From NCBI GenBank assembly GCA_000091205.1, contig AP006500.2: DNA of 64,000 nucleotides. The stretch is one strand, 5' to 3'. The translations under genes were made by a program, and so were the position numbers. This document shows, piece after piece, positions 6,540 through 63,300 of the stretch. Source of the DNA: Cyanidioschyzon merolae. Lineage: Eukaryota. Below the pieces are notes generated by a model. That model saw only the letters and a program-made list of their open reading frames with translations. It did not search any database and was not told the origin of the DNA. How positions within the stretch are numbered: the stretch's first letter is position 1; every line of letters starts with the position of its first letter.

Positions 6540-6960
6540 CGATGCCGCTGGAAACCAATTCCAAAATTAACCGATACCATTCCCGAGTTCATACAATGAA
6601 GCTTCGAGCCTGCCCCTCTCGTTACGTTTAGCATGCTCAAATCACACACGCTCCAAGTATTCGATTTCTCTGTTTCAAGGTCGCTCGTGGGCGGAGCATG
6701 TGGCGCTCCGGCACCGACCACGAAAGAGAATCGGTGTCATCTGCTTGGCAGCTTGTTGACCAGCGTATACCGCAAATTCAGTCAACCTGTAACGTCAAAT
6801 GAGAGAGATCGAATGTGTTCGAAAGACAGGTTCTCGCTTTTCTGTGGTCGTCGTCTACGCGGGATTCTACAGTACCATGACGCCTCTGACAGCGTATGCT
6901 CCAGGATGCTCCAGTCGGTTGCGCTTGCCCGCAAGAGGGTTTCTGAGTCAGACCTGACTC
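6540..6960 (+). repeat. Dispersed repeat family 2, copy 1 (~450 bp, carrying a small conserved ORF)
   Basis: It aligns by eye to 47730-48160 (+) and to the reverse complement of 42330-42800. All three share 'taaccgataYcRttgtYcaatgcaYaRgta...catgYtcaaatcac...ttcaaggtYtcgatYt...tttcaag'. An ORF starts at 6633 (MLKSHTLQVFDFSVS...). Confidence 0.65.
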
Positions 6961-7599
6961 ATCTACGGGATCGCATCCAGTGGAGCGTGTAGCATCGCTT
7001 TGCATGAGGCGAGCGTTGTCGGACGGGAGTCTCTCGACCTGTTCCCTGGTCTGGCGTCGCCTTCGAGGCCTTGGTGCATCATGGAAAACATCGCGCTCCA
7101 CGAACCCGCTATCGAGTGGACCAGCGTGCGCTTCCACGCCCAGCAGACAGCGTCCTCGACGCTGGGAGCGCCCTGAGGAAGCCCCTGATCGTAGAGTACG
7201 GCACGAGACGCAGAGACGCGAGGCGGGTATCGAGGATAGCCTGCAGTGCCTGCCACGAGCGTGTACCGAGCGATGACGCAAGCGTTGACGCGCCACAGGG
7301 CAGCCTTCTCATGAAGACGTGTGGTCTGCATATCGTTAGACCTGAACGCAGCCACGTGTCGTCTCTGCGAAGGGCGTCTCCAGGTTGTCTGGCGAAAGGA
7401 TGAGAGTGGCAGGCGAAACGTCGATCACAACTTTTGCCAGTGCACGGCATGCGTTGACAACAATCGGCAGCTACGACACCGGGATTTGAACACCACCACC
7501 TATATCCATCGACTGCTATCGACGGAGCTGGCGGCAAAGGGGAGACCAGCGTGTTTACACCCGGAGATTCGAGGAAACACAGGGAAACATTCTTGGGGA

Positions 7600-8290
7600 A
7601 AGAGGCCACAAACGCTGGTGCGCATAAGAATAGGACGAAACGAAAACCTCGGTGCGTACGTCTTTATCAGTGGATCTGTTCTATCTGGTACTGGCGTGAA
7701 CAGTGAAACAGAAAATGGTTCACAACCATGGACGGTAGATATATCCACTCACCCGCTGACGTCTCCCGGCCTTTTTGACCGACCCTCTGCTATCTGCTCC
7801 AGCTTTTCCTTCTACTCTTCGAGCCTGAGAGGCTGCCCCACAAACTTGTATCTCGTCAGCCCCGGGGGTCTCGTCTTCAGCACCACAAATCTCCTGGTAT
7901 TGATGACAGCGCTGAGGTCCTGGTACACGAATCCGATGCGTTTGCTGCCGCTGATAGAACTCATCAGTGCAAGAATTCCTCGAACTCGCGCACTCTGTTC
8001 CACTATAGTCTCATTGTCGTCCAGCCCAACAAACACCTTTTCCCGCCTATTTCCCTACTTATTCTTTTTCGTCCTCATTTGCCCCGTTTCGCTGGATGAT
8101 TGACGAGGAGCGGATCTTATTCGTTGTTTTCCAGCAGCCAGCGACACAGTGCATCCACGATCCCCGATTTAGGCATCAATACCTATCCCCTTGACTTTTT
8201 ATTTCTTCAACTGAACACACTGGGAACGCGTCTTCTATAACCCGAGAAAAGTCATTTTTAATGAAACGCATCTGGTAACGGAACACTATT
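7600..8290 (-). repeat. Truncated, diverged copy of the Fanzor/TnpB-like element 3' region (copy B)
   Basis: The ORF at 7812-8036 (-) reads 'RIGFVYQDLSAVINTRRFVVLKTRPPG', homologous to the '[27 protein letters not shown]' segment of copy A. Its downstream part (7600-7810) aligns by eye to the post-stop blocks of copies A, C and D ('gacgtctcccggcctttttgaccg'; 'ccatggttgtgaaccattttctgtttcactgt'). Upstream, 8040-8290 aligns to copies C and D. Confidence 0.7.
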
Positions 8291-8570
8291 GAAGTGAAAG
8301 TCTATACACCGATCGTCTGTCTGGACGGTGGCTCGCCACACCGATCGCACCAACACACGAGTGGCGCTTGCCGCTGCAAAACATACCATTGTTGCTCATT
8401 AGGAGTAGGTTCTAGAGCTTGCACTCCTTGTACGTCGATCATCATCTATACAGGCACAGGTAATACGTTTCCGAGCCAGTGACTTTCCCAGACAGAATCT
8501 GCTTTTGAACTAGCTTGCTGAACGTGTTTGATCGTGCGCTTTGGGAGCAGGTACTTGAGCTTCGACGCTC

Positions 8571-20168: not shown

Positions 20169-20942
20169 TGTCGCTTAGTCGCGAGGGCTGGTCAGTGGAA
20201 CCATACAGGTATCTAGATCAAACCACCGACAAATCCCTCGAGTCTTCTCACGTAGCCTCTGTACCTCGCACAGCGCTTTCGATAGCAGCACAGCGGGGCA
20301 TGCTTGCTTCCCCACGGTCCAGATTCGGGAGTGGGTACACGCCCTCGGCTGGCGTGCGCGTGCCGTGCATCCCCATGCGGCGACCGATACCCTGCTGTCC
20401 TTCTTGTACTAAAGTGTATCGTTTAATACAGATCCGATGAGCTGCATTTCCCTGGCGATGCAGCAGCGGGCGCTCGCGGAGACGCGGGAACCCTGCGACA
20501 CTGGGCGACGAGGGCGCTGCTTGGAATGACGGAAGCGAGCTCAGCTTCCTTATAGATCACTTTGGGTTCGACCAGCTCGGAAAAGGCTTGTTATCAGAGG
20601 GATCGAAACTTGATGAATCCAAAGAGCTCCTGAGTGCTGACCCCGTTCGCGCCAGCGGACGTGCATGCGTGTCAGCATGCATTGGAATCGGTCGACGTAC
20701 CTCACACGGACGTACACGCTACGGTTTGCGTCTCTTTCCGTTGTCTGTAACACGAGAGTCTCTGGGATATTTTTGTGACTCCTTTATTTGCCTATCTTAT
20801 TGTCGACTTTCAATGTGAAGATCTCTTCTTTCCCTGAAGCTCCGTTGTCCATCGGCGAATGATATTGATAGCAGTGTTCAAGTTGCGACTTGCTGCGTTC
20901 TGCAGTTGGCGACGCATTAGCTGCACAGACCAAAGATGCGAT

Positions 20943-21553
20943 CTAGGCTTCGCTTGCCATGTTCACCTTCGTGGTATACAGGCTCGGTGCGCACCCTTCG
21001 CACCGGTGACTCATGACTGTGATCAGATGGTCTCGGACGACCACAAAAACTCGTGACGCTCCAGAGGCTGTAGGGCGGCGTGAGAACGCGTGCTTCATCG
21101 CTCGGTCCGTGCCCTTGACGGTTGAAGAAGGCTCCACGCGATAGTGTCCTCCTCTTCTGCGCACACTACCGCACTCTGTGATCAGGGGTTTCTTCTGAGA
21201 GATCCCTCTGGCGAGTACGCTGTCGCTGCATGCGCAAGCGCGTGCAGTTTTCCGAACAAAACAGCACGGATGGGACGCGATGTTGTCGGTGATGATGCGC
21301 ATTCGGGAAGGGAAATCCAGGTTGGAGATGATATCGAGATATTTCGAAACGTTTACGCCCTGTTCGTGCAACGCGATGACGCAGGTCCGGACCCGGGATC
21401 CACTCTCATGGGAACAGGCAAGATGAGTGCATCAGGGAGCACGGATCCTCTGACTGGTATCATGCTACCATGGAAATCCGTTTTGTCGATGGCCTTGCAG
21501 AGAGGCGGATATGCCCTCCGAATGGCGCGACTCAATTGACGAGAGACGTTCAA
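20943..21553 (-). pseudogene. Possible decayed DDE transposase (pogo/Tc1-like) relic
   Basis: The minus-strand ORF contains 'RIITDNIASHP', resembling the DDE_1 'LLLDNASSHP' motif. An adjacent frame gives 'ALQPLE' (compare 'LQPLDQGII'). Frames are broken and the spacing is atypical. The relic lies in a gene-poor, AT-richer interval of ~3 kb. Confidence 0.25.
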
Positions 21554-23083: not shown

Positions 23084-25045
23084 TTACAGTGCGCTTGTGT
23101 TCAGCGAGGAAATATAATCCTTCAAGCCGACTAGACCACTAGTATGACGCAGTTTTCGAAACGCAGCATTCTCTATCGCTCTAACCTCTTCACGCGGTAA
23201 ACGCACCAGCGCACCTACTTCATCAATTGTCTTGGCAATGCCCGAGTCCAGACCGTATCGCAAACGCACAACCCTCATTTCCACATGATTCAGCAACTGG
23301 AGGGAACGCTCGAGATCTTCACGAAGCATGCTCAGCTCAATTTGCTCCTCAGGCGAAGCGCTTTCATGCACGATCGAATCCGCAAGGGTTGTGCGGTCTC
23401 GTTCCGAGCCAGACTGGTTGTTCCCAAACCGAACCGAGGATTCCAGCGAGATGGTCTGCACTGCAAGCGAACGCAATTCACGCAAGCGCTTCCGGGATAT
23501 TCCCAACCGTTCACAGATATCCGCTTCGGTTGGTTCGCAGCCCCGTTCGATGCTCAGGTCGCGCGCGGCTTTGCGAACGGCGAGTATGCGATCATGCATA
23601 TGAACAGGAAGCCGAACGATACGACCTTGGTCCGCAAGCGCGCGCATGACGCTCTGTTTCACCCACCAGGTCGCGTAGGTGCTGAAACGACATCCGCGTC
23701 GGTCGTCGAACTTTTCTGCCGCCCGAATGAGGCCGAGCGAGCCCTCCTGGATGAGATCCTCCAGGGGCAGACCTTTGCGCATGTATCGCTTGGCAATGGA
23801 CACCACGAGTCGGAGGTTCGCTGCTACCATACGGTCCTTCGCTCGCCGTGCTTCGGCAAGGTTCCTGCGAAAGCGCTCTGGGTCGACACCGAGATGCTCT
23901 GCGAGTTCATCATCCGTTGGTGCTCGATCCAGTGCCCCGTGGAGCTCGATTCGCTTGCGCTCCCAATGCAAAAGCCGTGAAATCTGACGTGAAAGCGATA
24001 CTTCCTCCTCAGGGGTGAGCATATCCACACGTCCGATCATGCGCAAGTACCAGCGCAGGGTACTGCTCTCGCTGGAACGCGCACGAGGGGTTTCGGGATA
24101 TGTCTCCCACGCCAGCGGCTCATTGTCGGAAGGATCATCTTCACTGTAGTCGAGTTCCCGAATGCTCGGTCCGTCATCATCCGCTGCACGTTCGCTGTCC
24201 TGGATGCGTTCCCACCGGGCATTCACTACGGCGGATGGATTCGTAGAGAGGGATCGACGTGATCCTTGTGGCAACTTGTGAACTGCATCATTCAGAGATG
24301 TTGGGCTGAGTCGTTGGTCGGCATTGGACAACTGACGTTGCCGAGCTGGCCGGACACTCTTACTTGAACGTGTTTTCGCGCTCGGAGAGGTAGTTTCACG
24401 CATATGAGCTTGCCCAGGCCCGCCAGGGTGCTTCGCCTCCCAGTTTGGTACCGGCAGGCGATTATCCACGGAAACGAAAGTTTCCTCCAAAGGGGTTTGG
24501 AGCGGCGAATCAGGTACTGCCGACGTAGACTGGCCAACACGAAGCGTTGCAGCTCTCGCCTGACGACGACGCGAGCTGCCGGTTCGCTCGGGCGTACGCT
24601 GCGCACCGGAACTCGCATCCGGAGTCGTACCGCTGTCCACTGACTTGGGCACATGTTCACGCTGCTCGTCGCGTGCCACGGGACCTAGCGGTGCTGGGGC
24701 ACAAACACTGTTCGCCTCCGGCTCAAGTTTTCTAGCTCCATCAACAAAACCATGCTTTTCGAGAGCGTACTCAGCGCCTAGGTCTCGTGATCTGTTCGTG
24801 TTCGCGCAGCAGCGACAGCTGCGCAAGAGGCGCGGCTCGGCCACAACTAGCCTCACACCGCGACCAGGGCAAGTCTTGCCGTGCTGCAACCGCTGCCCGG
24901 CACGCGGCAGATCCAGTTGCTTTAGCGGGCGCACCCTCCATAGACCGAGCGTCGCCGTGACGAAACCTACACCGTCGCTGCTTAGCCTGCAGCAGCGCGC
25001 CTCAGCGCTCGCGGTACGTCCCTGCGTGAACATTGCCCAAGCCAC
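23084..25045 (-). CDS. RNA polymerase sigma-70 family factor (nuclear-encoded plastid sigma factor)
   Basis: The C-terminal half carries canonical regions 2-4: 'RNLAEARRAKDRMVAANLRLVVSIAKRYMRKGLPLEDLIQEGSLGLIRAAEKFDDRRGCRFSTYATWWVKQSVMRAL' (regions 2.1-2.4), 'TIDEVGALVRLPREEVRAIENAAFRKLR' (region 4.2) and others. A long low-complexity N-terminal extension is consistent with an organelle-targeted eukaryotic sigma factor. Confidence 0.85.
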   Translation of the reverse strand: MAWAMFTQGRTASAEARCCRLSSDGVGFVTATLGLWRVRPLKQLDLPRAGQRLQHGKTCPGRGVRLVVAEPRLLRSCRCCANTNRSRDLGAEYALEKHGFVDGARKLEPEANSVCAPAPLGPVARDEQREHVPKSVDSGTTPDASSGAQRTPERTGSSRRRQARAATLRVGQSTSAVPDSPLQTPLEETFVSVDNRLPVPNWEAKHPGGPGQAHMRETTSPSAKTRSSKSVRPARQRQLSNADQRLSPTSLNDAVHKLPQGSRRSLSTNPSAVVNARWERIQDSERAADDDGPSIRELDYSEDDPSDNEPLAWETYPETPRARSSESSTLRWYLRMIGRVDMLTPEEEVSLSRQISRLLHWERKRIELHGALDRAPTDDELAEHLGVDPERFRRNLAEARRAKDRMVAANLRLVVSIAKRYMRKGLPLEDLIQEGSLGLIRAAEKFDDRRGCRFSTYATWWVKQSVMRALADQGRIVRLPVHMHDRILAVRKAARDLSIERGCEPTEADICERLGISRKRLRELRSLAVQTISLESSVRFGNNQSGSERDRTTLADSIVHESASPEEQIELSMLREDLERSLQLLNHVEMRVVRLRYGLDSGIAKTIDEVGALVRLPREEVRAIENAAFRKLRHTSGLVGLKDYISSLNTSAL

Positions 25046-25359
25046 GTCTGTCTCGATGCCCTCCCAAATTCAAGAAATAGGAGTCCAGCTCGAAGAACCA
25101 AGCTTCACCAAGTAGCCTTTTTGAGCAGAGCACGTCCCTGGTTCGACAAATGGGAGTACCACGAACGACAACCGCCTTTCAAAAGAAAAACGCTGTCACT
25201 GGCCGTATACAGTCGTGGCGGCGAATGCGCGTAGACAAAACGCCTCCAACTGACGCGCAGACGCTTCCGAGGCTTTCTCGACCGGCCACCCACGACTGCT
25301 TCCAATTGTTTCTAATATAGTTCCACTTTGGGATGTTGTCCAACAATGTTTTCTCATGT

Positions 25360-25884
25360 CTACGCTGGAGGTCTCTTCTCCAGCACCGCACATCTCCGGA
25401 TATTGATTGCGGCGTTAAAGTCTCGGTTCACAAACTCCATCCGTTTCTTGCCATCGTTGGTTGTACTTACGAATGCGAGTAGCCCTCGAACTTTCGCCCT
25501 CCTTTCCATTTGCTCCTCCGTCAGCGGTCCGAACTTTTTTATATCCTCAGGGCTCCGCTGGCACTTTTCCATATCGACCCGCTGGAGTGTACACCTCAGC
25601 CCGTGGTGTGTATACGATGTTCGGAACTCATCTACAGGTATCGTAACGAAACGCCTTGCGCACTGCTTGTACGTTCTTGTCGTTGGAGCTGGCGTACACC
25701 CTTTTCGGGTCTTCCAGCGCCCTGCTCCGCGTGCTACTACGAGCCTCTGACTTTTATCCTCTTTGAAGGCGCTCATTGGAAAAATTCGCAGATGCACGCT
25801 GCCTCCCACCGTATAGATGAATACGTAGACGAGCCCAAAAGGGCTTTGTGTACTCTTTCCACAGCGCCTCACAATGAGCAACAC
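25360..25884 (-). CDS. TnpB/Fanzor-like nuclease, C-terminal segment (OrfB Zn-ribbon region + RuvC-III)
   Basis: '...[30 protein letters not shown]...[28 protein letters not shown]'. The Zn finger appears degenerate (HH...C...C instead of CxxC...CxxC). Confidence 0.7.
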
Positions 25885-25975
25885 GAATTTCCATGAATTT
25901 CAGAAACGCTTTAAAGTCCGCTCCGCGGCAAGTCACCTCGCTCAAAGCTTCCCGGTGATCCTTCATTCCATCGTT

Positions 25976-26578
25976 CTACGTCTCAATTTTCTTCCTTGCA
26001 TTCATGATTCCCGATTCTCGATAGTATCTCGCTCTCGAGAACCTCAACAGACGCACGTCTTTCTGACGCAAGTTGCCGTCGGTATCATCTCCCCCACGCT
26101 TGGGTACAGCGACGGTTATAATATTCGTGTTCCCGGGGTCCGCGCCACCGACAAAGCAATTCTCATGCACTTTCCGCGTCGCAGGACCCGCCTCCTTCTT
26201 TTTTTCATGCTTCGTCGCGCCAACCGTAAAGTCGTTAGCTTGCACTTTCTGTGTCGCAGGATCCTTCTCCTTCTCATCTTCATGCTTCGTCAGCGGCGGA
26301 ACTGGACGATCCACCTTCAACCGCCGATAGTGTACACACAGGGCTACTCCATCGGTTTCGATCAACCCAGTGAACAACTTTTGCTTGCTTATTTTGAGAC
26401 GTTTGAAAACGAAGATATTCTTCCAGTGCATCTCCCTGTTCTCACCTGTGAACTCTGCCCTCCTTACATCGAACTCGGGACTGATCTCCTTCATGATGCC
26501 ATGAAGGACTCTGGAGCCGGTAGTAACAAAATGTGACTTGATGGTGCACATTGGAACGACGTTGGAGCGCTTCCCCAT
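25976..26578 (-). CDS. TnpB/Fanzor-like nuclease, central segment with the RuvC-I motif
   Basis: '...[51 protein letters not shown]'. It contains an internal tandem duplication of ~66 bp (26160-26290; '[16 protein letters not shown]' / '[16 protein letters not shown]'). It is out of frame with the downstream segment, indicating a frameshift or a small intron. Confidence 0.65.
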
Positions 26579-29500
26579 TAGGGCCGCCTTCCGTCTCTCC
26601 CACTCTTCATTTTTTCGTCACTCAGCTTTATTTCCGCCTTGCGTTCTGGCGCTCGGTCCAGAAACGCGAAATAGCACAGAATGAGGCGATAGTATCTTTC
26701 ATTATCTTTTTTCAGCTCTGATATCTTTTCTCTTGAATTCGCCAGCCCCGAGACTGCACGGTGCTCTTGTATAACAGCACGGATTACAGAAGCTTCATTC
26801 GTGCTCCTGCGTGATTTCTTCTCGTCGACGAATTCGATCTAATCTTCATGCTTGCGATCGTTCGTGATACCGTTGATAATCGCCCATATTCCTTTGCGAG
26901 ACAGGCCCGGGTAAATTGCAAACACGGCGCATATCATAAAACGTTCGAGGTTCATCCTCAAATGCTTCTTCAGGTTCGTGAGGTACTTCATCGCCCCGTA
27001 TGTGTAAGTATCCCGGTCACCCCTGTATCGAGTACCCTCGAAGCGGAATTCCGCGAAGTTTTCGTGGAGGACGTGCACTAGCTCATTTTCCGTCCGCGTT
27101 TCCCCTGTGCCAAGCATCAGGTGACGAATAAAGGTCTTGTCGAAAACTCGTCCGGAATCTCGACTGTTTCCGTATGCGCCACGTCTTCGTACATCTCCCT
27201 CGCCATATGCATGACTCCTAAAGAAGCCTTTATAACACTCATGGGGTACGAATCGACACGGTTCCTGATAGCGTCTCGCAACTTTTCCTTGTAGGGATCC
27301 TTGATATGTTTACGAAGACAGGCGTTTACCACCATCTCGTCGTACTTTCGTCTTTCGTACAGCATGTAAAGTCGGGTCTCCTGCCTTAGCTTCTTCGTCT
27401 TCTCCTGCTCCACTTGGCTCGGCACTCTGTTTCGCTTTCTCTGGCAGCCGGCGAGGTTGTACCACCGGTATCATCCACTTGCTTCTCCATACGTTTCCAT
27501 TTTTGAAAAAGAACGCGCTTTGATCGCTTCTGCTATGTAGCGCGAAAAATCAATCGAATACACCCCCCCTGAGGATTGAAACACAATGGAACTGAGAAGC
27601 TATACTTGCGGCCACTTTCACACAAATACACCCTGTACGATAGAACAACACGCGAAAGATCAGAATCGCGTTTCCCTTCAACGGCGACATGCGCGTCATG
27701 TCTCGTGACTGCCGGATCTCCCGGGTGCGCGTATCGAGCGCACTATGTACCAACAAGAACATAGACTAACGATAAACTACCAACGATACAAAAATTCCTT
27801 TCCCCTCTACGATAAACGTTGAACGTGGGAAACCGCTTCCGTACTGTCGAAAGTTAGCCTTCTTGACGGAAGGTCCCGCGAGCCGGACGAGTCTGTCACG
27901 TTTGTGTTTCATGCTGCACTCAGTGGCAGGTACTTCAGTGGCAGGTACTTCAGTGAAATCTGAGCCACTCGTCCGCAACGCAGTTTCCTCTGAGACTAGG
28001 GGCAGTTAAGCTGTGTCTGGGCGTCGCCCATGTTGCAACTATCTCCGAGCATATCGCTTGGCGCTGCTGCAGGCAGTAGGGCTGTCTGCCCAGTTTTCAG
28101 GCTCCCAGAATGACAATTAGCTCTGATTCCGTGTCAGGTGTAGTATTCGTCGGGCCGACACCATCGGGAGTATGGCAAAGCCGTTCTGGCTACGTGCAGC
28201 ATCTGCTCCAGCGGTGTAGGCGCTGCAGCGGGTGCTCAGCGCAGGCACTCGGCACACGGTAGAACGTTCGAAACGATCAGTATACCCGAGATGAAGAGTA
28301 AGTAATGGAACTTGAAGGTAGGATGCATGATGATGGGCGCTTCCCCGAAAGCCATTATCTATGCCGCAATCTGAGATCCATGGTTCATGTAAACGTTTTG
28401 ATATCGAAAAAAAAATCGCTACCGCCATTGTCATCCCCGCGGATCCATCAACTGGTGATCGCCTCGTCCATGATCTGTTTCATTGCACAGGTCGCTCGAT
28501 GGACAAGCGTTCCTCAACTGCGCGCTTGAGATGAGCGATCGGGAAAGCATCCATCGATCTAGGTCCTGCCTCCAAGTTCCGTGGTGCATACGTCTCCTCC
28601 GAGTGTACTCGTTATCTCTTATGTTCTGTGGTATGCGTCGAGGCTGTTGTGAGCGTTTGCGATAGCGCGTGTAGCGTCGATGCGCACGCAGCCCCGAGGT
28701 CATGTCCACGAAGCGGTTTGTGTGCACGGCCGCCGATGTATTGCTAGTGAAACATGTCGATACAGTGGATCGGGAGTGCTCTGGATGCACTGGTGCTGTC
28801 GGCAGCTGGGGAATGGACACTTGTTTCTTCTCGGATATGGCAGCGTCGTGATGCCTGCAGACCAATTTCCTAGACGAGAATCGGGATTCATAGCATAGAC
28901 GCTTGAACGCTGCGCCCTATCAAACCGCTGGTAGCGGAGCCTGTGGCAGCGCGCAACCCTATACGCCCGCTCGTGCCGCGGAGCATGGCGCAGGCTTCAT
29001 GGTATTCGCGCATGCGTTCAAAAAAGGGTCCCGGAGTGCATCGCTGCCCGTTCCACTGAGGTCGCAGGCTCACCGATACCGCCTCATCGATCCTGGGGCC
29101 GTTCATATCAGTGGATGGAGGTGCTGCGTGATGAAACTACGCAGAGAGGTTTTACCTGGATTCAGACTGCAGCAGGAAGCACGCCTTCGTTCAGTCTCGA
29201 GAGTGCTTGCCTCAGCAGCAGCGCAGTGTCATTTGCCATGAAAACCTACGCAGGTGTCCCAGCGGTCCAGCGTCGCGAGAGGCTACGGATAGCAGCTCCC
29301 CCCGGATCGATGCAGATGCAATTGCGGCTAGGCGAAACCGATATCTGTGCCCGGCACGAATCGTGAATGTGGATACGTATACGGATGCATCCATAAGTGC
29401 GTCCATCGCTCGCCAAGGTCGATGCAGCGTCCGTTATTGCGCAAAAAACGACGATTCCGTGGACCTTCAGCGAAAAGGCGAGCTGCGCTCCACATTCCAT

Positions 29501-41195: not shown

Positions 41196-42329
41196 TTATA
41201 AAGGTCCAAGAAACTTCGCCTTCATTGCCCTCGAGCGTACGGTTATGCCGAGGAATTCCCTGCCCTGTAACGGGAGCGCGACATAGGGCGCTCTGCTGTC
41301 CGCAGATTGCGGCGAAGTGGCAGCGCGCAGCTGGACAGCAGCATCCCCCGGAGCGTATCGCCTTTTCGTGAGAGCGGAGCGTATCCGAAGGAGGGATTTC
41401 CTTCGGGTGCAGGATTATAGACGTGAGCTTGTTTTTCCCAATAGCGCCATGGTTATGGGATATCCGGGAGAGCGTCTGGTTTTCTGAAGGATATGGCTTG
41501 CACTGCCCCAGCGTACAGACAAGGCGAGCTGGGGCTTGACTTTACGGCATCGTCGCTGGATACGTTCGACGTGCTTGCACTGCATCTGCGTCTTTTCACT
41601 AAACATTGTTTGATCGGGCGGGTTTTTCTTTTGGAATGCTAAGCTGATGCGTGCGCATAGAAGCGGTTGGATGCCTGCATCATGAGTGTCAGCATGGGAA
41701 CGGGCCAGGTACACGTTCCGAACTCGGGCGTGAACGCTAGCTTTCTTGTTTCTCTCAGGTGTGATGGACAGCTGCCGTTGGGGAATTTTTTTCGGCGACT
41801 GTTCACGTTTTCTCTCTTAGTTCCAGATTACAATATGCTGGTCTATTCTTTCCATCCAGCTCTGTTCACAGCAGTTGACGGATGTTGGCGGTAGCGTTCA
41901 AGTCCGGATTTCGTACCTGCCGACAGTTGTCAACGCATTTCATGCACAGACGCAAGATGCGGTGTAGGCTCGCTTGACATCTTCATCTTTTTCATGTACA
42001 GTCTCGGTACGCAGTTTGCAGCTGTGACTCCTGGATATGGACAAATGAAGTATAAATCTATCTGCCATACCCTCTCGACTGAGATCCACGTTGAAGCGCG
42101 TAAACGCCTGCTAGATCGCTCCGTATACGCCCTTATATGAAAGGCGATCCTCGATGCCCTGCTCCGTTTCCGTGCCAGGAGCGATGCCCTGCAATGACGC
42201 GCTTGGTTTGGACTATACCGTCGGCGAATGTGCTGCCGGCTGAACGTGCAAGCGCATGCCGTCCATGATAAAAATTAGCTGAGGGCATATCATAACTGGA
42301 CAACAAGTCGAGAAATGTCGATTCGTCTA

Positions 42330-42800
42330 CGCTTTCCTCGTGCGGCACGGTAACGAACGCCCGACTGCAAAACGATCGCCGTGCTGACTGAACGCCGAGT
42401 CCAGGATGCGTATCGGGGCAAACCGAAGCGAGGCGAGCCTCTGGGCGCTCATCGTGTGAGAGCGATCATGCTGCAGCTGTCGAGTTCTGGTTCGCCGGCG
42501 GCCACCCAGGGTGGGCATTGTCTTTCGAAAGAAATCGATTCCTTGACATGACAAGTTCAGAGAAGTTTCGATTTGAACTTGTGAGAATGTCATCAAAGAG
42601 CGATGTGAATTTATGTGACTTCTTCGTCAATCCATCGCAGCGCATCGCTGTGCGCATGCGGTGCCTTGAAATGTAGAGATCGAAAACTTGAATCATGTTT
42701 GATAGGAGCACGATACACACGTACGTGAGGGAGAAGATTCGCGGATTCTACTTGTGCATTGGACAATGATATCGGTTATTATACGAACTCTTGTTCGCCG
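42330..42800 (-). repeat. Dispersed repeat family 2, copy 2 (reverse orientation)
   Basis: The reverse complement of 42660-42790 reads 'taaccgatatcattgtccaatgcacaagta...aaacatgattcaagttttcgatctctacatttcaaggcac', which matches copies 1 and 3. An ORF at 42466-42720 (-) begins 'MIQVFDLYIS...'. Confidence 0.65.
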
Positions 42801-42949: not shown

Positions 42950-43650
42950 ACAGCTAGAACATAGTTCCGGAAAAGAATCGAACTGGATGAACAAAGCGAG
43001 TCATCCCCTACTCGATTTTATCGTCAGCGAAATGAGAAATGTTCTACGATAATTGAGGGTGTATGAATACATACATACGCAGACGCCTCCCAGCCTTGTT
43101 TTGACCGGTTCCCCGATACCGGTTTCAGCTTCTCCCTGTATACTTCGATCCTGAGAGGCTGCTGGACAAAAGTTGGACCGGGGCAGCTTCGAGGGTCACG
43201 TCCCCGGTACCAAACTTCTTCTGATATTGATGGCGGCGTTGAAGTCTCGGTTCACGAACTCCATGCGTTTATTGCCGCTGGTGAAGCGTATCATTGCAAA
43301 GATCCCTAGAACTCGTACCCTCTGTCCCAGTACAATCTCGCTATCGTCCCATCGGACAAACAGCTGTTCTCGAGTATATATCCCCTGTTCTTGTTCTTCG
43401 TCACTTGCTTTTCTTCGCTAGATAGTCGACGAGAAGAGGATCTTTTTCGGTTTTTATCCCGGTCGCCAGCGACACCAGCCCTCTAGAATCCCCGACTCCC
43501 ATGTCCATACGGTTCGCTTAGATTTCTTATTTCTTCAAATGAACGCTTTTCGGACGCTTCGATTACAAACCGAGAAAAAGCGTTTGATGCGACGCACCCG
43601 GAGATGGCGCACAATTCAAGAAAGCGTCTACAATCTGACACGAGCCCACC
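42950..43650 (-). repeat. Truncated, diverged copy of the Fanzor/TnpB-like element 3' region (copy C)
   Basis: The reverse complement of 43201-43260 encodes '...[20 protein letters not shown]'. The reported plus-strand ORF 43173-43421 is the antisense frame of this. The flanks align to copy B ('cttcgatcctgagaggctgc', 'gcagacgcctcccagccttgttttgaccgg', 'ttatttcttcaaatgaac...ccgagaaaaagcgtttgatgcgacgcacccgg'). Confidence 0.7.
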
Positions 43651-47335: not shown

Positions 47336-47729
47336 CGTTCATTCGTGTCGGCAGCTCGGCAGCACGAGCGCTAGTCAGAACGGCGCTTGCACCCAGAAAC
47401 GCGCTTGAACGACAGAAATATTTGTTAAGCGAGCAATGGGGTCTCGCTTGCCAAACCAGCCGGAGCAATGTTCGGTTGTTGGCGAACTCTACACCCGTGT
47501 CAGAGTAAAATGGGACACTGAACCGCTCGCTCTCTTCATTCCCATGGATTTTCTTACGACAGATCTTAGATGTCCAGCATCGACGTGAGCAGTGCGGCAG
47601 TACGAGATGATGGACTCATGCGTACTTTAAGGATGCTTGGACGTCTTTTCGGAGCGACTTGCCCGAGTGTATGTCGCAGGGATTCGGTACGGCATTGTCG
47701 TACTGATGGTCCTCGCCACCCTCGAACGA

Positions 47730-48160
47730 GGGTTCGTAATCTAACCGATACCGTTGTTCAATGCATAGGTACAGGCCTCCGCTGCCTCAAGTTTCTAGCG
47801 TGAAACATGTTCAAATCACGCATTCTTCAAGGTTTCGATCTTTGTGTTTCAAGTCGTGGATACAGTAAATCCGCCTTCGGATTCACGACGAACAAAAGCT
47901 CCATGTCGCGCCTCAACGACTTGTTCACAGGCGCGTACCCAAAGTCCACTGGACTTGGAACCTCAAATAATAACCGATTCCAGTCGATAGACAAATCATC
48001 GTTTCTTGCTGACGATTCGCGAAACCGGATTCCACAGTAGCAGGACGCTTCTCGACAGATTTGTTTCCAGTGGCTCCAGTTTCTTCTGTTTGCACGGGAA
48101 AGGGCCTTAAATTCAGAACTGAGTCATCACAGCGATCGATTCCAGCTGAGCATACGTCAC
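47730..48160 (+). repeat. Dispersed repeat family 2, copy 3
   Basis: 'ctaaccgataccgttgttcaatgcataggta...gtgaaacatgttcaaatcacgcattcttcaaggtttcgatctttgtgtttcaagtcg'. An ORF at 47807-48040 begins 'MFKSRILQGFDLCVSS...'. Confidence 0.65.
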
Positions 48161-49015
48161 CTCTTTGCAACAAAACAGCGTAGACCGATCGACATTTCTC
48201 GACTTGTTCTTCAACCTGGATTTTCCTTCCGGTACTTTTTTTCATCTCGGATAACATTGCATTCCGCAAATCCTCGATCGAATGCGACGCAGTGCGCTAG
48301 CGTATGCAGCGGACAGTGTACTCGCCCAGGGCATGTATCCGAACTGGCGCGTGTGAACGTCGGGCACGGCACCGGGCGCGGAAACGGTGGCCTGCATCGA
48401 GGCGCGCCTTGTGTTCGCGTCAAGCTCATGTACCGAACGATAAAGCAAGCGCTCACGCTCCACAGAACGGATACCAGAGGCGGAGGAGAACCTGTGATGG
48501 GCGTGCCAGAGAACATCACCCCAGCTCAATATCACCGCCGCAATGGGTGCACCGCGGCTTCATACGAAAGAAGATGAACATGGCAAGCGAGACGTAGATT
48601 GCAAGTTTCGTCGATACATGGAATTCGTCAACAGCAGCCGGAATCAACGACATCGGGACATGAACGCTGCCAGCAACAGCCTTTAAATACTAACAACACG
48701 GTACACGATAGAACCTATGCAGCAACCAGTATATCCCAGAGCACGTATGGAGTTTGGGGCTTGGAAGCAGGGCGCGGAATCATGTATGCTTCACCGCGCG
48801 CTGATATCGAGCGCACTGTCGGGGAACGCTAGCGTGCTTCAACGTTTTTGTCACAGAAACAAGAATGCTGACAACGGGACTGGAGGGAAACGATAGACCG
48901 GCGTATTCAAATCCGGAGAAAACGTGTTGAAAAGGAAGCATTCGCAGAGAACGCCCTCCTAGACGAGAACTGATGACACTGGGAACAGATCCAGACTTTA
49001 GCATGTACGCTTTCG

Positions 49016-62224: not shown

Positions 62225-62624
62225 GCGAAGCAGCTCAATACGCTAACCCTATGCCGGGAACGACGCGATGGGAGAAGGCTTGCGCCAGAAACGCACGTCC
62301 AGTGTGTGTGTGTATGCGAGACAGAGAGCGCCTACGCGAGTCCCGTGCGCGCACCGTTTGCAGCAATGCGCGCGCGCCGTTTGACGCCCCCCAGCGCGCC
62401 TGGACGCGCACCGCACCGAGGCGCTGGCCCCGCGCACCGGTGCCGTTTGATGGCGCGCCTGGACGCGCGAAGCGGCGCCTTCGGTACATCGCGCGGCGCT
62501 CGAGCGCGCGCCGGCACGCATCGATCCACGAAAGGTGCCCGCGACGTCGCGATGGCAGCTGCACGCACAGCATGTGACGTGACAACACGTTTCGGGGACA
62601 CGCTGCGGCGTGTTGCGTCGAATT

Positions 62625-62663
62625 ACGTTGCGCGCTGGTAACTAGCGCGCAACGTAATTGTAT
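62625..62663. repeat. Perfect GC-rich inverted repeat, 15-bp arms and a 9-nt spacer (aattacgttgcgcgc-tggtaacta-gcgcgcaacgtaatt)
   Basis: The right arm is the exact reverse complement of the left arm. It lies ~400 bp upstream of the WNK kinase start codon and at the 5' edge of Fanzor-related copy D. Confidence 0.9.
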
Positions 62664-63300
62664 TCCGTGGCCGGGAGCGTGTCGTCGAATGCTGTTTCGC
62701 GGTTGATGGCAGGGGCGTTGACGTGCGTTCATTTGAATGAACGAAAAAAATCCAAAGGAAATGCATGGAGATAAAGGTCGGGGATTCCAGAGGGCTGGCA
62801 TCTCTGGGTACCGTGAAAGGACTGAAAATTCTCTTCTCGTTGACTATCGGGCGTAGGAGAGCAAGTGACGAAATGGAAGAAGAGAAGATATCATCGAGAC
62901 AAGGCGTTTGTCCTACGGGACGATGACGGGACTATAGTGGGACGGAGGATGCGAGCTCTAGGAATCCTGGCAATCATGCGTTTCACTGGAGGCAATAAAC
63001 GCAAGGAAACCGTGAACCGGGACTTCAACGCCGCCATCAATACCAGATGATGCGCGGCGCTGGAGACGAGACCCGAGGAGCAGAGGCGAGCGAGCTTTGT
63101 GGGGCCCCCTCTGAGGCTCGATGTCTACGTCGAGGAAAGTGATACCGAGCGCAGGCGGTCGGTCAAGAAAGGTTGGGCAGCGTCTGCGCGTGGACACGTA
63201 CGTAGATCTTCCATGGCTGCGAAACGTTTGCGTTTACTGTCATGTTTAGTAGAGTTTTTTGGTTTGACACGTCGTCTACAGCGACGATAGATCCCAGATT
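62650..63300 (+). repeat. Truncated, diverged copy of the Fanzor/TnpB-like element 3' region (copy D, plus orientation)
   Basis: The ORF at 62865-63050 (+) reads '...[33 protein letters not shown]'. Downstream, 'gtcggtcaagaaaggttgggcagcgtctgcgcgtggacacg...ccatggctgcgaaacgtttgcgtttactgtca' matches the post-stop blocks of copies A and B. Upstream, 62690-62865 matches copies B and C. A perfect 15-bp inverted repeat sits at the 5' boundary (62625-62663). Confidence 0.7.

Follow-up and report, generated by a model that had tools for sequence, protein, structure and literature searches.

The interval described here, positions 25046-25357 on the minus strand, lies in a 64,000-nucleotide (nt) stretch of nuclear DNA (the window) of the intron-poor red alga Cyanidioschyzon merolae strain 10D, between an open reading frame (ORF) fragment with a TnpB/Fanzor-like RuvC-III motif (stop codon TAG at 25362-25360) and the gene of a sigma-70 factor. 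A preliminary description had presented it as a non-coding block conserved downstream of a Fanzor-like ORF in four copies, and as a candidate scaffold of a guide RNA (omega RNA, ωRNA). Our analyses indicate, with a probability of about 80%, that it is the 3' end of a dead copy of the transposon CMe-1A, called copy A below, followed by ~110 nt of host DNA. Three parts can be told apart in it with high confidence: 25359-25234 is what is left of the ORF, 25230-~25156 the decayed tail of the transposon, and 25155-25046 DNA of the host. Five ORFs of the window match exactly C. merolae 10D proteins in the series BAM82408-BAM82425, from a 1.25-Mb chromosome, and the window is therefore C. merolae nuclear DNA.

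The CMe-1A family comprises ~150 copies, each ~80% identical to a 3169-bp consensus; it lacks terminal inverted repeats, shows no detectable target-site duplications, and the 635 bp at its 5' end correspond to TE-N2_CMe (Bao & Jurka 2013, PMC3627910). The Fanzor-like nature ascribed to the ORF was borne out, as it belongs to the Fanzor1 family CMe-1. Over residues 306-734 of the published CMe-1 protein, 734 being the last one, the conceptual translation of copy A has 76% identity (343/454), and the consensus 5' untranslated region (UTR) and N-terminus match window positions 27649-27277 at 80%. At the other extremity, the left-end motif CGATATCAAAACGTTTAC begins at 28406. The reading frame shifts 1->0->2->0, with at least three frameshifts and at least four in-frame stops; one stop is found ten codons past the consensus ATG, with further ones beyond. 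Copy A almost certainly does nothing now. Its ORF includes a 75-nt tandem repeat (26141-26290, minus strand), which codes for a K/E-rich unit of ~25 amino acids (…KHEEKKEA.PATQKVQ.NDF.VGA…) just upstream of the RuvC-I motif GADPGNTN and is present in 2 to 5 copies among homologues.

The stop codon that had been taken for the end of the ORF is the first of three nonsense codons, which align with L692, R694 and E708 of CMe-1; the other two are TGA at 25356-25354 and TAG at 25314-25312. Read through these stops, the ORF frame gives ...RPPA-stop-T-stop-ENIVGQHPKVELY-stop-KQLEAVVGGRSRKPRKRLRVSWRRFV, which aligns residue for residue with the published CMe-1 C-terminus ...RPPELTRENFVGQPLKVELYEKKLEAVVGGRSKKTGRRLHVSWRRFV, the consensus protein ending in …LEKRPPELTRENFVGQPLKVELYEKKLEAVVGGRSKKTGRRLHVSWRRFV. 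Homologues from hot-spring metagenomes (60-78% identity) read …RPPE.TRENF.GQPLKVELYEKKLEAV.GGRSK..GRRLHVSWR… and reach their stop a few codons later. The first of the two sequence cores put forward as conserved non-coding signals, ggtcggtc(a/g)agaaagg..ggg.agcgtctgcgcgt, lies at ~25290-25250 in copy A and codes for GGRSKK.GRRLRV; the peptide encoded by the quoted motif is GGRSRKPRKRLRV. The second core, ccatggctgcgaaacgttt..gtttcactgt, is a shared sequence in the three short copies only, where it represents their last codons (PWL-stop) and ~25 nt. The segment 25359-25234 is what remains of the 42 codons at the C-terminus of the Fanzor protein, which three nonsense mutations cut off in copy A. 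The similarity of copy A to the other copies is therefore that of coding sequences with a common ancestor, and does not reflect selection on a non-coding block.

To describe the family beyond the window, 69 non-redundant 3' regions, including the window copies, were assembled from 80 metagenome loci with a family member (66 of the 69 are metagenomic). In these 69 copies, the codon periodicity of the C-terminal extension is weak but significant, with nucleotide diversities of 0.25/0.21/0.28 at codon positions 1/2/3 (p=0.026); the corresponding values of the upstream ORF are 0.16/0.15/0.34. Overall, diversity is 0.24 in the C-terminal stretch and 0.22 in the ORF before it; the tail has 0.33, and third codon positions 0.34.

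Taken literally, the view that 25046-25357 as a whole is a non-coding block held conserved in the four copies by selection on an ωRNA scaffold appears very unlikely. The interval does sit at the 3' end of a Fanzor ORF, and the similarity between copies does run beyond the stop of copy A. Nevertheless, this similarity extends for ~117 nt (25359-25243), not the 150-250 bp first estimated, and it is coding, since the stretch is in frame and matches the published CMe-1 C-terminus. In a four-way alignment of the window copies, one of the checks that the preliminary description had proposed together with covariation analysis and RNA structure prediction, the identity of copy A with the other three is 65-68% in the last 155 nt ahead of the stop and 56-57% in the following ~117 nt, and it drops to background (33-40%) from 25242 on. 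The similarity past the stop is thus real, but it is weaker than in the ORF, and all of it falls within the ancestral ORF. No excess conservation was found by diversity either (0.24 vs 0.22 in the upstream ORF). Beyond the ancestral stop, copy A shares nothing with the other three copies, and no copy bears any relation to 25155-25046, which makes up the 3' third of the interval; conservation does not extend through the whole of the interval. Several helices within the coding extension, CCGGTC/GACTGG, CGTCT/AGACG and the long-range pairing of CAGTAGT.GGTGG with CCACTACTG, were examined and dropped. The first is broken in half of the copies and the only possibly compensated case of the last is copy A itself; neither shows consistent pairing or compensation.

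The host part of the interval is only 33-40% identical to the other copies, which is the background level, and the family conservation profile drops to 0.3 there. Next to it lies the sigma-70 gene, for which the Pfam Sigma70 regions r1.2, r2, r3 and r4 were matched. Its start was set at ATG 25033 according to the gene calls of metagenome orthologues, with a 649-residue orthologue that is 99% identical. The transposon tail now makes up the region immediately upstream of this gene. Two metagenome loci (L081:1-1190 and L082:1-402) match window positions 24901-26090 at 98-99% and likewise have this dead Fanzor copy in front of the sigma-factor gene; the insertion is therefore older than the divergence of these strains. 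As these are the sole orthologous loci found in the metagenomes, the search for an empty site to fix the right end yielded none, and there was no orthologue of copy A among the 80 family loci. That the block has been kept conserved as the promoter or 5' region of the sigma-factor gene is extremely improbable. The right end is only ~123 nt from ATG 25033 and the arrangement is the same at the orthologous metagenome loci; however, the host part is common to no other copy, the similarity to the other copies falls within the transposon, and orthologues that are 98-99% identical throughout are uninformative on constraint.

The non-coding tail of the family is only ~75-95 nt long, and in copy A it spans 25230-~25156 and is partly decayed. 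With conservation expressed as the fraction of the commonest base, the 69 copies show 0.83-0.89 through the ORF, whose consensus TAG is at alignment positions 256-258, then 0.77-0.78 over the next ~45 nt, 0.59 over the next 30, and 0.3, i.e. background, afterwards. Homology reaches the background level ~75-95 nt past the stop, and nhmmer end points cluster at 75-97 nt. The published CMe-1A consensus ends 69 nt after the TAG, at …GAAAGGCG, within the 3' arm of a terminal hairpin. Copies at six loci (L011, L050, L059, L064, L070 and L076) extend it by 12-20 nt (TTTGTTGTYG…GGTG), which completes the hairpin. The right end of the element does lie within the interval, as had been supposed, at ~25156.

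Single-sequence folds of 16 tails revealed the same architecture of two hairpins, HP1 and HP2. In the family, HP1 has the form UAG-GGCGGG-loop-CUCGCC-A-CUA, with the stop codon as part of the stem, and it is followed by a short, nearly invariant linker (CCACUACUGUAC as RNA). HP2 has ~20 bp, and its 3' foot (..GGTG) coincides with the end of homology between copies. In copy A, the inner stem-loop of HP2 (25197-25167) is intact and the outer stem has decayed; the right end was placed at ~25156 (±5) from the 3' foot (..GTGGTA). Two subfamilies can be distinguished by this hairpin, which reads GGCGTCGTTCGA-CTT-TCGAACGGCGTT in v1 and AACGTTTTTC-TTTT-GAAAGGCGTT plus an outer stem in v2, the C. merolae type. 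Despite several substitutions and a 3-nt indel between them, v1 and v2 both form the long hairpin, in different pairing registers. The features discussed here are listed below.

Table. Features of the window in and around the 3' end of copy A, and the related short copies (positions in the window)
Feature	Position	Strand	Remarks
Host DNA, from the right end to the sigma-factor gene	25046..25155	-	Without similarity to any copy; not part of the element
Plastid sigma-70 factor, nuclear gene, 649 amino acids from ATG 25033	23084..25033	-	Neighbouring gene, not part of the element
Copy A, full-length but dead CMe-1A Fanzor1 element	25156..28406	-	TE-N2_CMe-like 5' module (28406 to ~27820), 5'UTR, ORF remnants, 3' tail
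Premature stop TAG at the position of CMe-1 Leu692	25360..25362	-	'ORF stop' of the preliminary description; homologues have CTG/TTG/CAG
In-frame remnant, CMe-1 codons 693-734, basic C-terminal tail ...GGRSRKPRKRLRVSWRRFV	25234..25359	-	Translation alignment
TAC in place of the canonical stop of the family (consensus TAG)	25231..25233	-	69-copy and published consensus, list of tails
Remnant of decayed hairpin HP1	25217..25230	-	Folds of 16 tails
Linker, ACGACTGTA in copy A	25208..25216	-	Family consensus CCACTACTGTAC, nearly invariant; alignment columns
Long terminal hairpin HP2, 'v2' C. merolae type	25157..25207	-	Fold of copy A tail, ends of family hairpin
Copy C1, ~600-bp internal-deletion derivative, divergent CMe-1 subfamily	7695..8294	-	
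Copy C3, same ~600-bp deletion derivative	43022..43620	-	
Copy B, same ~600-bp deletion derivative	62652..63244	+	

In the structure prediction proposed earlier, the family tail folded far more stably than shuffled sequence, an advantage limited to the sense strand. Compared with dinucleotide shuffles, 11 of the 16 tails have z <= -2 (the lowest is -6.3), and for nine of the 16, zero or one of 200 shuffles was equally stable; for the tail of copy A, z = -1.6. The sense fold is 5.1 kcal/mol stabler than the antisense fold in 54 of 64 copies (p=3e-8), and no asymmetry was found in ORF or flank controls. This fits the prevalence of G·U pairs, which are the commonest pair at 5 of 28 stem positions. 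The location proposed for an ωRNA scaffold therefore stands in part: the family does have a structured non-coding tail between its true stop and the right end, but the sequences quoted in support are not in it.

For covariation, a covariance model was seeded on two v1 copies and collected 43 tails, and a second model built from those collected 68. In the alignments fitted to these models, 85.6% and 79.8% of the cells are paired, vs 81.8% and 75.4% in shuffles, and the covariation scores are 0.129 vs 0.085 and 0.156 vs 0.101, with none of 500 shuffles reaching the observed values. The HP1 pairs are 89-93% paired in these alignments. Slid controls leave only 27-62% of the cells paired. The tail of copy A matches the family covariance model weakly (16.3 bits, 25249-25163), and it was not found in a whole-window search with model R1, from the v1 seeds. 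RNAalifold on MAFFT alignments of the tails proposed nothing, or only 3 pairs. The covariation analysis thus supports the fold on model-fitted alignments, and the support is absent on the sequence-only alignment. The preliminary description had stated that it would be contradicted if conservation did not exceed that of neighbouring sequence and if covarying stems and a transcript were missing. Half of this applies: there is indeed no excess conservation; the hairpins are well supported by folding energy, and covariation is equivocal.

The assignment to Fanzor1 rests on profile comparisons and on conserved motifs. An exhaustive profile search retrieved 1469 relatives, from which remote homologues were taken. 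The family profile deepened with 33 of these matches the solved Fanzor1 structures 9CF0 (Parasitella) at 1e-18, 8GKH (Spizellomyces) at 4.8e-9 and 9CER (Guillardia) at 4.7e-5. Single sequences, ORF pieces and the shallow family profile gave no useful match in Pfam and PDB, and Pfam Cas12f1-like_TNB was detected only below threshold (E=0.014). The motif D-X(125-275)-[TS][TS]-...-RD of Bao & Jurka, which holds the RuvC catalytic residues, is present. The series GADPGNTN ... VDEFRTSY ... VNRDFNAA is found in CMe-1, in its homologues and in copy A, and the D, P, E and R-D-N-A-N residues are invariant across 36 diverse homologues. The C4 zinc finger expected between TS and RD is lacking. The segment at its place, TSYTHHELGCTLQRVEMEKCQRS (25640-25560 in copy A), which is seen in the CMe-1 family proteins (P0001-P0120), contains two His and two Cys and no CxxC pairs; it may form a non-canonical metal site. 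An AlphaFold2 model computed on a 14-sequence alignment was unusable (predicted local distance difference test score, pLDDT, 31.6).

What might the tail do? In active elements, the tail, perhaps with the last part of the ORF, would be transcribed along with the Fanzor mRNA and would act as an ωRNA scaffold. The ~15-20 nt of flanking DNA just past ..GGTG would then be the guide, as in Spizellomyces Fanzor1; at the locus of copy A, any ωRNA made would draw its guide from the host DNA 25155-25046. In addition, the terminal hairpin may act as a marker of the transposon end in the DNA itself. Given its position, size, stability and strand specificity, we put at roughly even odds that the tail is the predicted ωRNA scaffold of the family. 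It extends from the canonical stop to the end of homology, over 75-95 nt, as expected of such a scaffold. The flanks diverge right after ..GGTG and show no motif, a pattern that a guide would need but that any insertion would produce as well. A more specific proposal is that the ~85-nt two-hairpin tail (stop-codon hairpin, CCACUACUGUAC linker, ~20-bp ..GGUG hairpin) would be the ωRNA scaffold of a red-algal Fanzor1 of a thermo-acidophile, without the canonical zinc finger and with the guide beyond the right end, and that the module, present on the ~600-bp derivatives and the 'solo' tails, would maintain non-autonomous relatives via the nuclease. We consider this proposal possible but tentative.

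Several observations weigh against an ωRNA role. The covariation excess is limited to the alignments fitted to a model; when the v1 register was imposed on a sequence-only MAFFT alignment, 74.9% of the cells were paired, vs 75.4% in shuffles, i.e. no excess. In a decay simulation that compared real substitutions with spectrum-matched random ones, the signal was weak (p=0.21 for v1, p=0.025 for v2); a first version of the simulation, biased by the counting of flank differences, had given a stronger result than this stricter design. DNA energy parameters predict the same hairpins, with z of -2 to -4.8, which leaves room for a role of single-stranded DNA. An Rfam scan of 24800-25700 gave no match, and none of the 80 retrieved loci holds an intact ORF, the longest having 594 residues. 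Lastly, the tail of the divergent subfamily (C1, C3, B, L061 and L007) shows no convincing hairpin, in what are few copies.

Two other explanations of the hairpins must be weighed against the scaffold. They might be the single-stranded DNA end of a transposon mobilized by a transposase supplied in trans, like the right end of IS200/IS605 elements or the 3' hairpin of Helitrons, with no ωRNA role or a secondary one. Single-strand (HUH-type) transposons, too, use a terminal hairpin and do without inverted repeats and target duplications, and CMe-1A has neither terminal inverted repeats nor detectable target-site duplications. HP2 is such a right-end hairpin; it abuts the end of homology and, with HP1, folds equally well with DNA parameters. 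Abutting elements point the same way, with a TE-N2 left end 17 nt past the right end of copy B and junctions of a tail with a 5' module in 5 loci, as do the small subterminal hairpin also found at the TE-N2-type left end and the fact that Chlamydomonas Fanzor1 elements are carried on Helitron2. We nevertheless hold this explanation to be somewhat unlikely: the element encodes only the Fanzor ORF and no transposase (the rest of the genome was not searched), its termini (CGATGAC... on the left, ...GGTG on the right) do not fit the 5'-TC/CTRR-3' of Helitrons, and five or six G·U(T) pairs in the stems favour RNA. Moreover, it would not be exclusive with an ωRNA, as the right-end hairpin of IS200/IS605 elements such as ISDra2 and IS608 is also part of the ωRNA.

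Alternatively, the hairpins could have no function and be palindromes inherited from a master copy, for instance from a 3'UTR with incidental structure. The diversity of the tail (0.33) is roughly neutral, being equal to that of third codon positions (0.34), no covariation is seen on the unfitted alignment, and the divergent subfamily does without hairpins. This is unlikely in view of the folding energies (z down to -6.3, and stability reached by 0-1 of 200 shuffles in nine of 16 copies), the strong strand asymmetry and the maintenance of the long hairpin in two registers of different sequence; in addition, real copies are slightly more stable than the simulated decay predicts.

Self-comparison of the window revealed four related places, namely copy A and the three short copies C1, C3 and B. 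In the latter, an internal deletion joins the 5'UTR and first codons, where homology to the published consensus surrounds the ATG, directly to the last ~110 codons, and the 3' tail that comes next is short and differs from that of copy A. Beyond RLRV, their frame runs on for a few more codons as far as a stop position common to all three (TGA, TAG or CGA), after which the copies have ~25 nt in common. Their appearance is that of a non-autonomous ('ghost'-like) family of elements rather than of independent truncations. A near-perfect palindrome of 39 nt (92%) is present at the 5' boundary of copy B (62621-62659).

TE-N2_CMe-like modules occur twice in the window, at 28406-~27820 (minus strand) as the 5' part of copy A, and at 63262-~63534 (plus strand), beginning 17 nt after the right end of copy B. 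The TE-N2-type left end consists of a T-rich tract, then CGATGACAAAACGTTTAC, and ~30 nt inside it is a small hairpin, ATCCC-N7-GGGAT (ATGCC…GGCAT in locus L059). The T-rich tract that precedes CGATGAC could belong to the element or to its target. Family homology breaks at 27741 in copy A and at equivalent 5'UTR positions in ~20 loci, and at least four unrelated 5' modules (TE-N2-type, X, Y and Z) are found upstream of the break. The 5' part of the family is therefore a mosaic, and no one consensus describes its left end or ends. With homology splitting at 27741 into these modules, no single left end and no target-adjacent motif could be defined.

Four loci of one subfamily contain 'solo' Fanzor 3' tails (L052:456-524, L039:460-531, L004:461-507 and L025:392-463), made of the last ~35 nt of the ORF, HP1 and HP2, and located ~700 nt upstream of the Fanzor core. 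Each is flanked by the same sequence on both sides. In locus L058, the tail of a complete upstream copy abuts the same 5' module as in the solo-tail loci. Together, these loci point to tandem or abutting insertion, or to a tail at both ends of the element.

The window also harbours another family of dispersed repeats, unrelated to the Fanzor element, with ~70-75% identity among 20808-21015, 41828-42033, 48532-48681 and 7440-7550, and in the pairs 6862-7298 with 48027-48465 and 42265-42797 with 47723-48245; some members lie beside C1 and C3.

In itself, the locus matters little: it holds a dead copy of a family that was described in 2013, and the use of 3'-end ωRNAs by Fanzors has been established since 2023. 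It carries a caution for genome scans, since a 'stop codon' in a decayed transposon copy can make coding sequence look like conserved non-coding DNA. The family and the mechanism were known before; novelty is confined to the hairpin structure of the tail and to a right end that reaches slightly further. The refined 3' end of CMe-1A completes the terminal hairpin that is truncated in the published consensus, and it offers a candidate, testable ωRNA scaffold for a Fanzor1 of an extremophilic red alga with a compact, genetically tractable genome. If the prediction is true, a scaffold would be at hand for reconstituting a Fanzor adapted to ~42-45 °C.

IS200/IS605 elements such as ISDra2 and IS608 offer a first comparison. 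The guide RNA of their TnpB nuclease runs from the 3' end of the nuclease gene through the right end of the transposon, and one subterminal hairpin has two roles, at the end of the DNA element and within the RNA. In contrast with CMe-1A, these elements are bacterial, have the Y1 transposase TnpA as partner, and their ωRNA largely overlaps the ORF; CMe-1A has no transposase in the element and no canonical C4 zinc finger.

The closest system is CMe-1A as published (Bao & Jurka 2013, PMC3627910), which is the same family. Copy A is ~80% identical to its consensus DNA and shares the TE-N2_CMe-like 5' module and the lack of terminal inverted repeats, but unlike the consensus it is a pseudogene. The published account predates the discovery of ωRNA and is silent on the structure of the tail.

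Among characterized Fanzors, the ωRNA scaffold of the Spizellomyces SpuFz1, 75 nt in length, lies after the stop codon and before the right end of the element (Saito et al. 2023, PMC10432273), and the CMe-1A tail, of ~75-95 nt, occupies the same place and is followed by variable flanks. Both proteins are Fanzor1, and in both cases short non-autonomous relatives keep the 3' region: short 'ghost loci' in Spizellomyces (PMC10432273), ~600-bp derivatives and solo tails here. SpuFz1 elements differ by their 30-nt inverted repeats, of which CMe-1A has none, and their RNA has been sequenced, shown to be bound and structurally solved, whereas that of the CMe-1A tail is predicted only. With other Fanzors, the RNAs that co-purify originate in the 3' non-coding region next to the right end (PMC10530073). 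One of the systems in that work, CrFNuc-1 of Chlamydomonas reinhardtii, for which no cleavage activity was detected (Jiang et al. 2023, PMC10530073), is likewise an algal Fanzor1 whose 3'UTR gives a conserved and structured RNA; further copies of the RNA region stand alone in the genome, and classical terminal inverted repeats are missing. The CrFNuc-1 elements are Helitron2, with target-site duplications, asymmetric terminal repeats and introns, whereas CMe-1A is unclassified and its ORF is intron-less.

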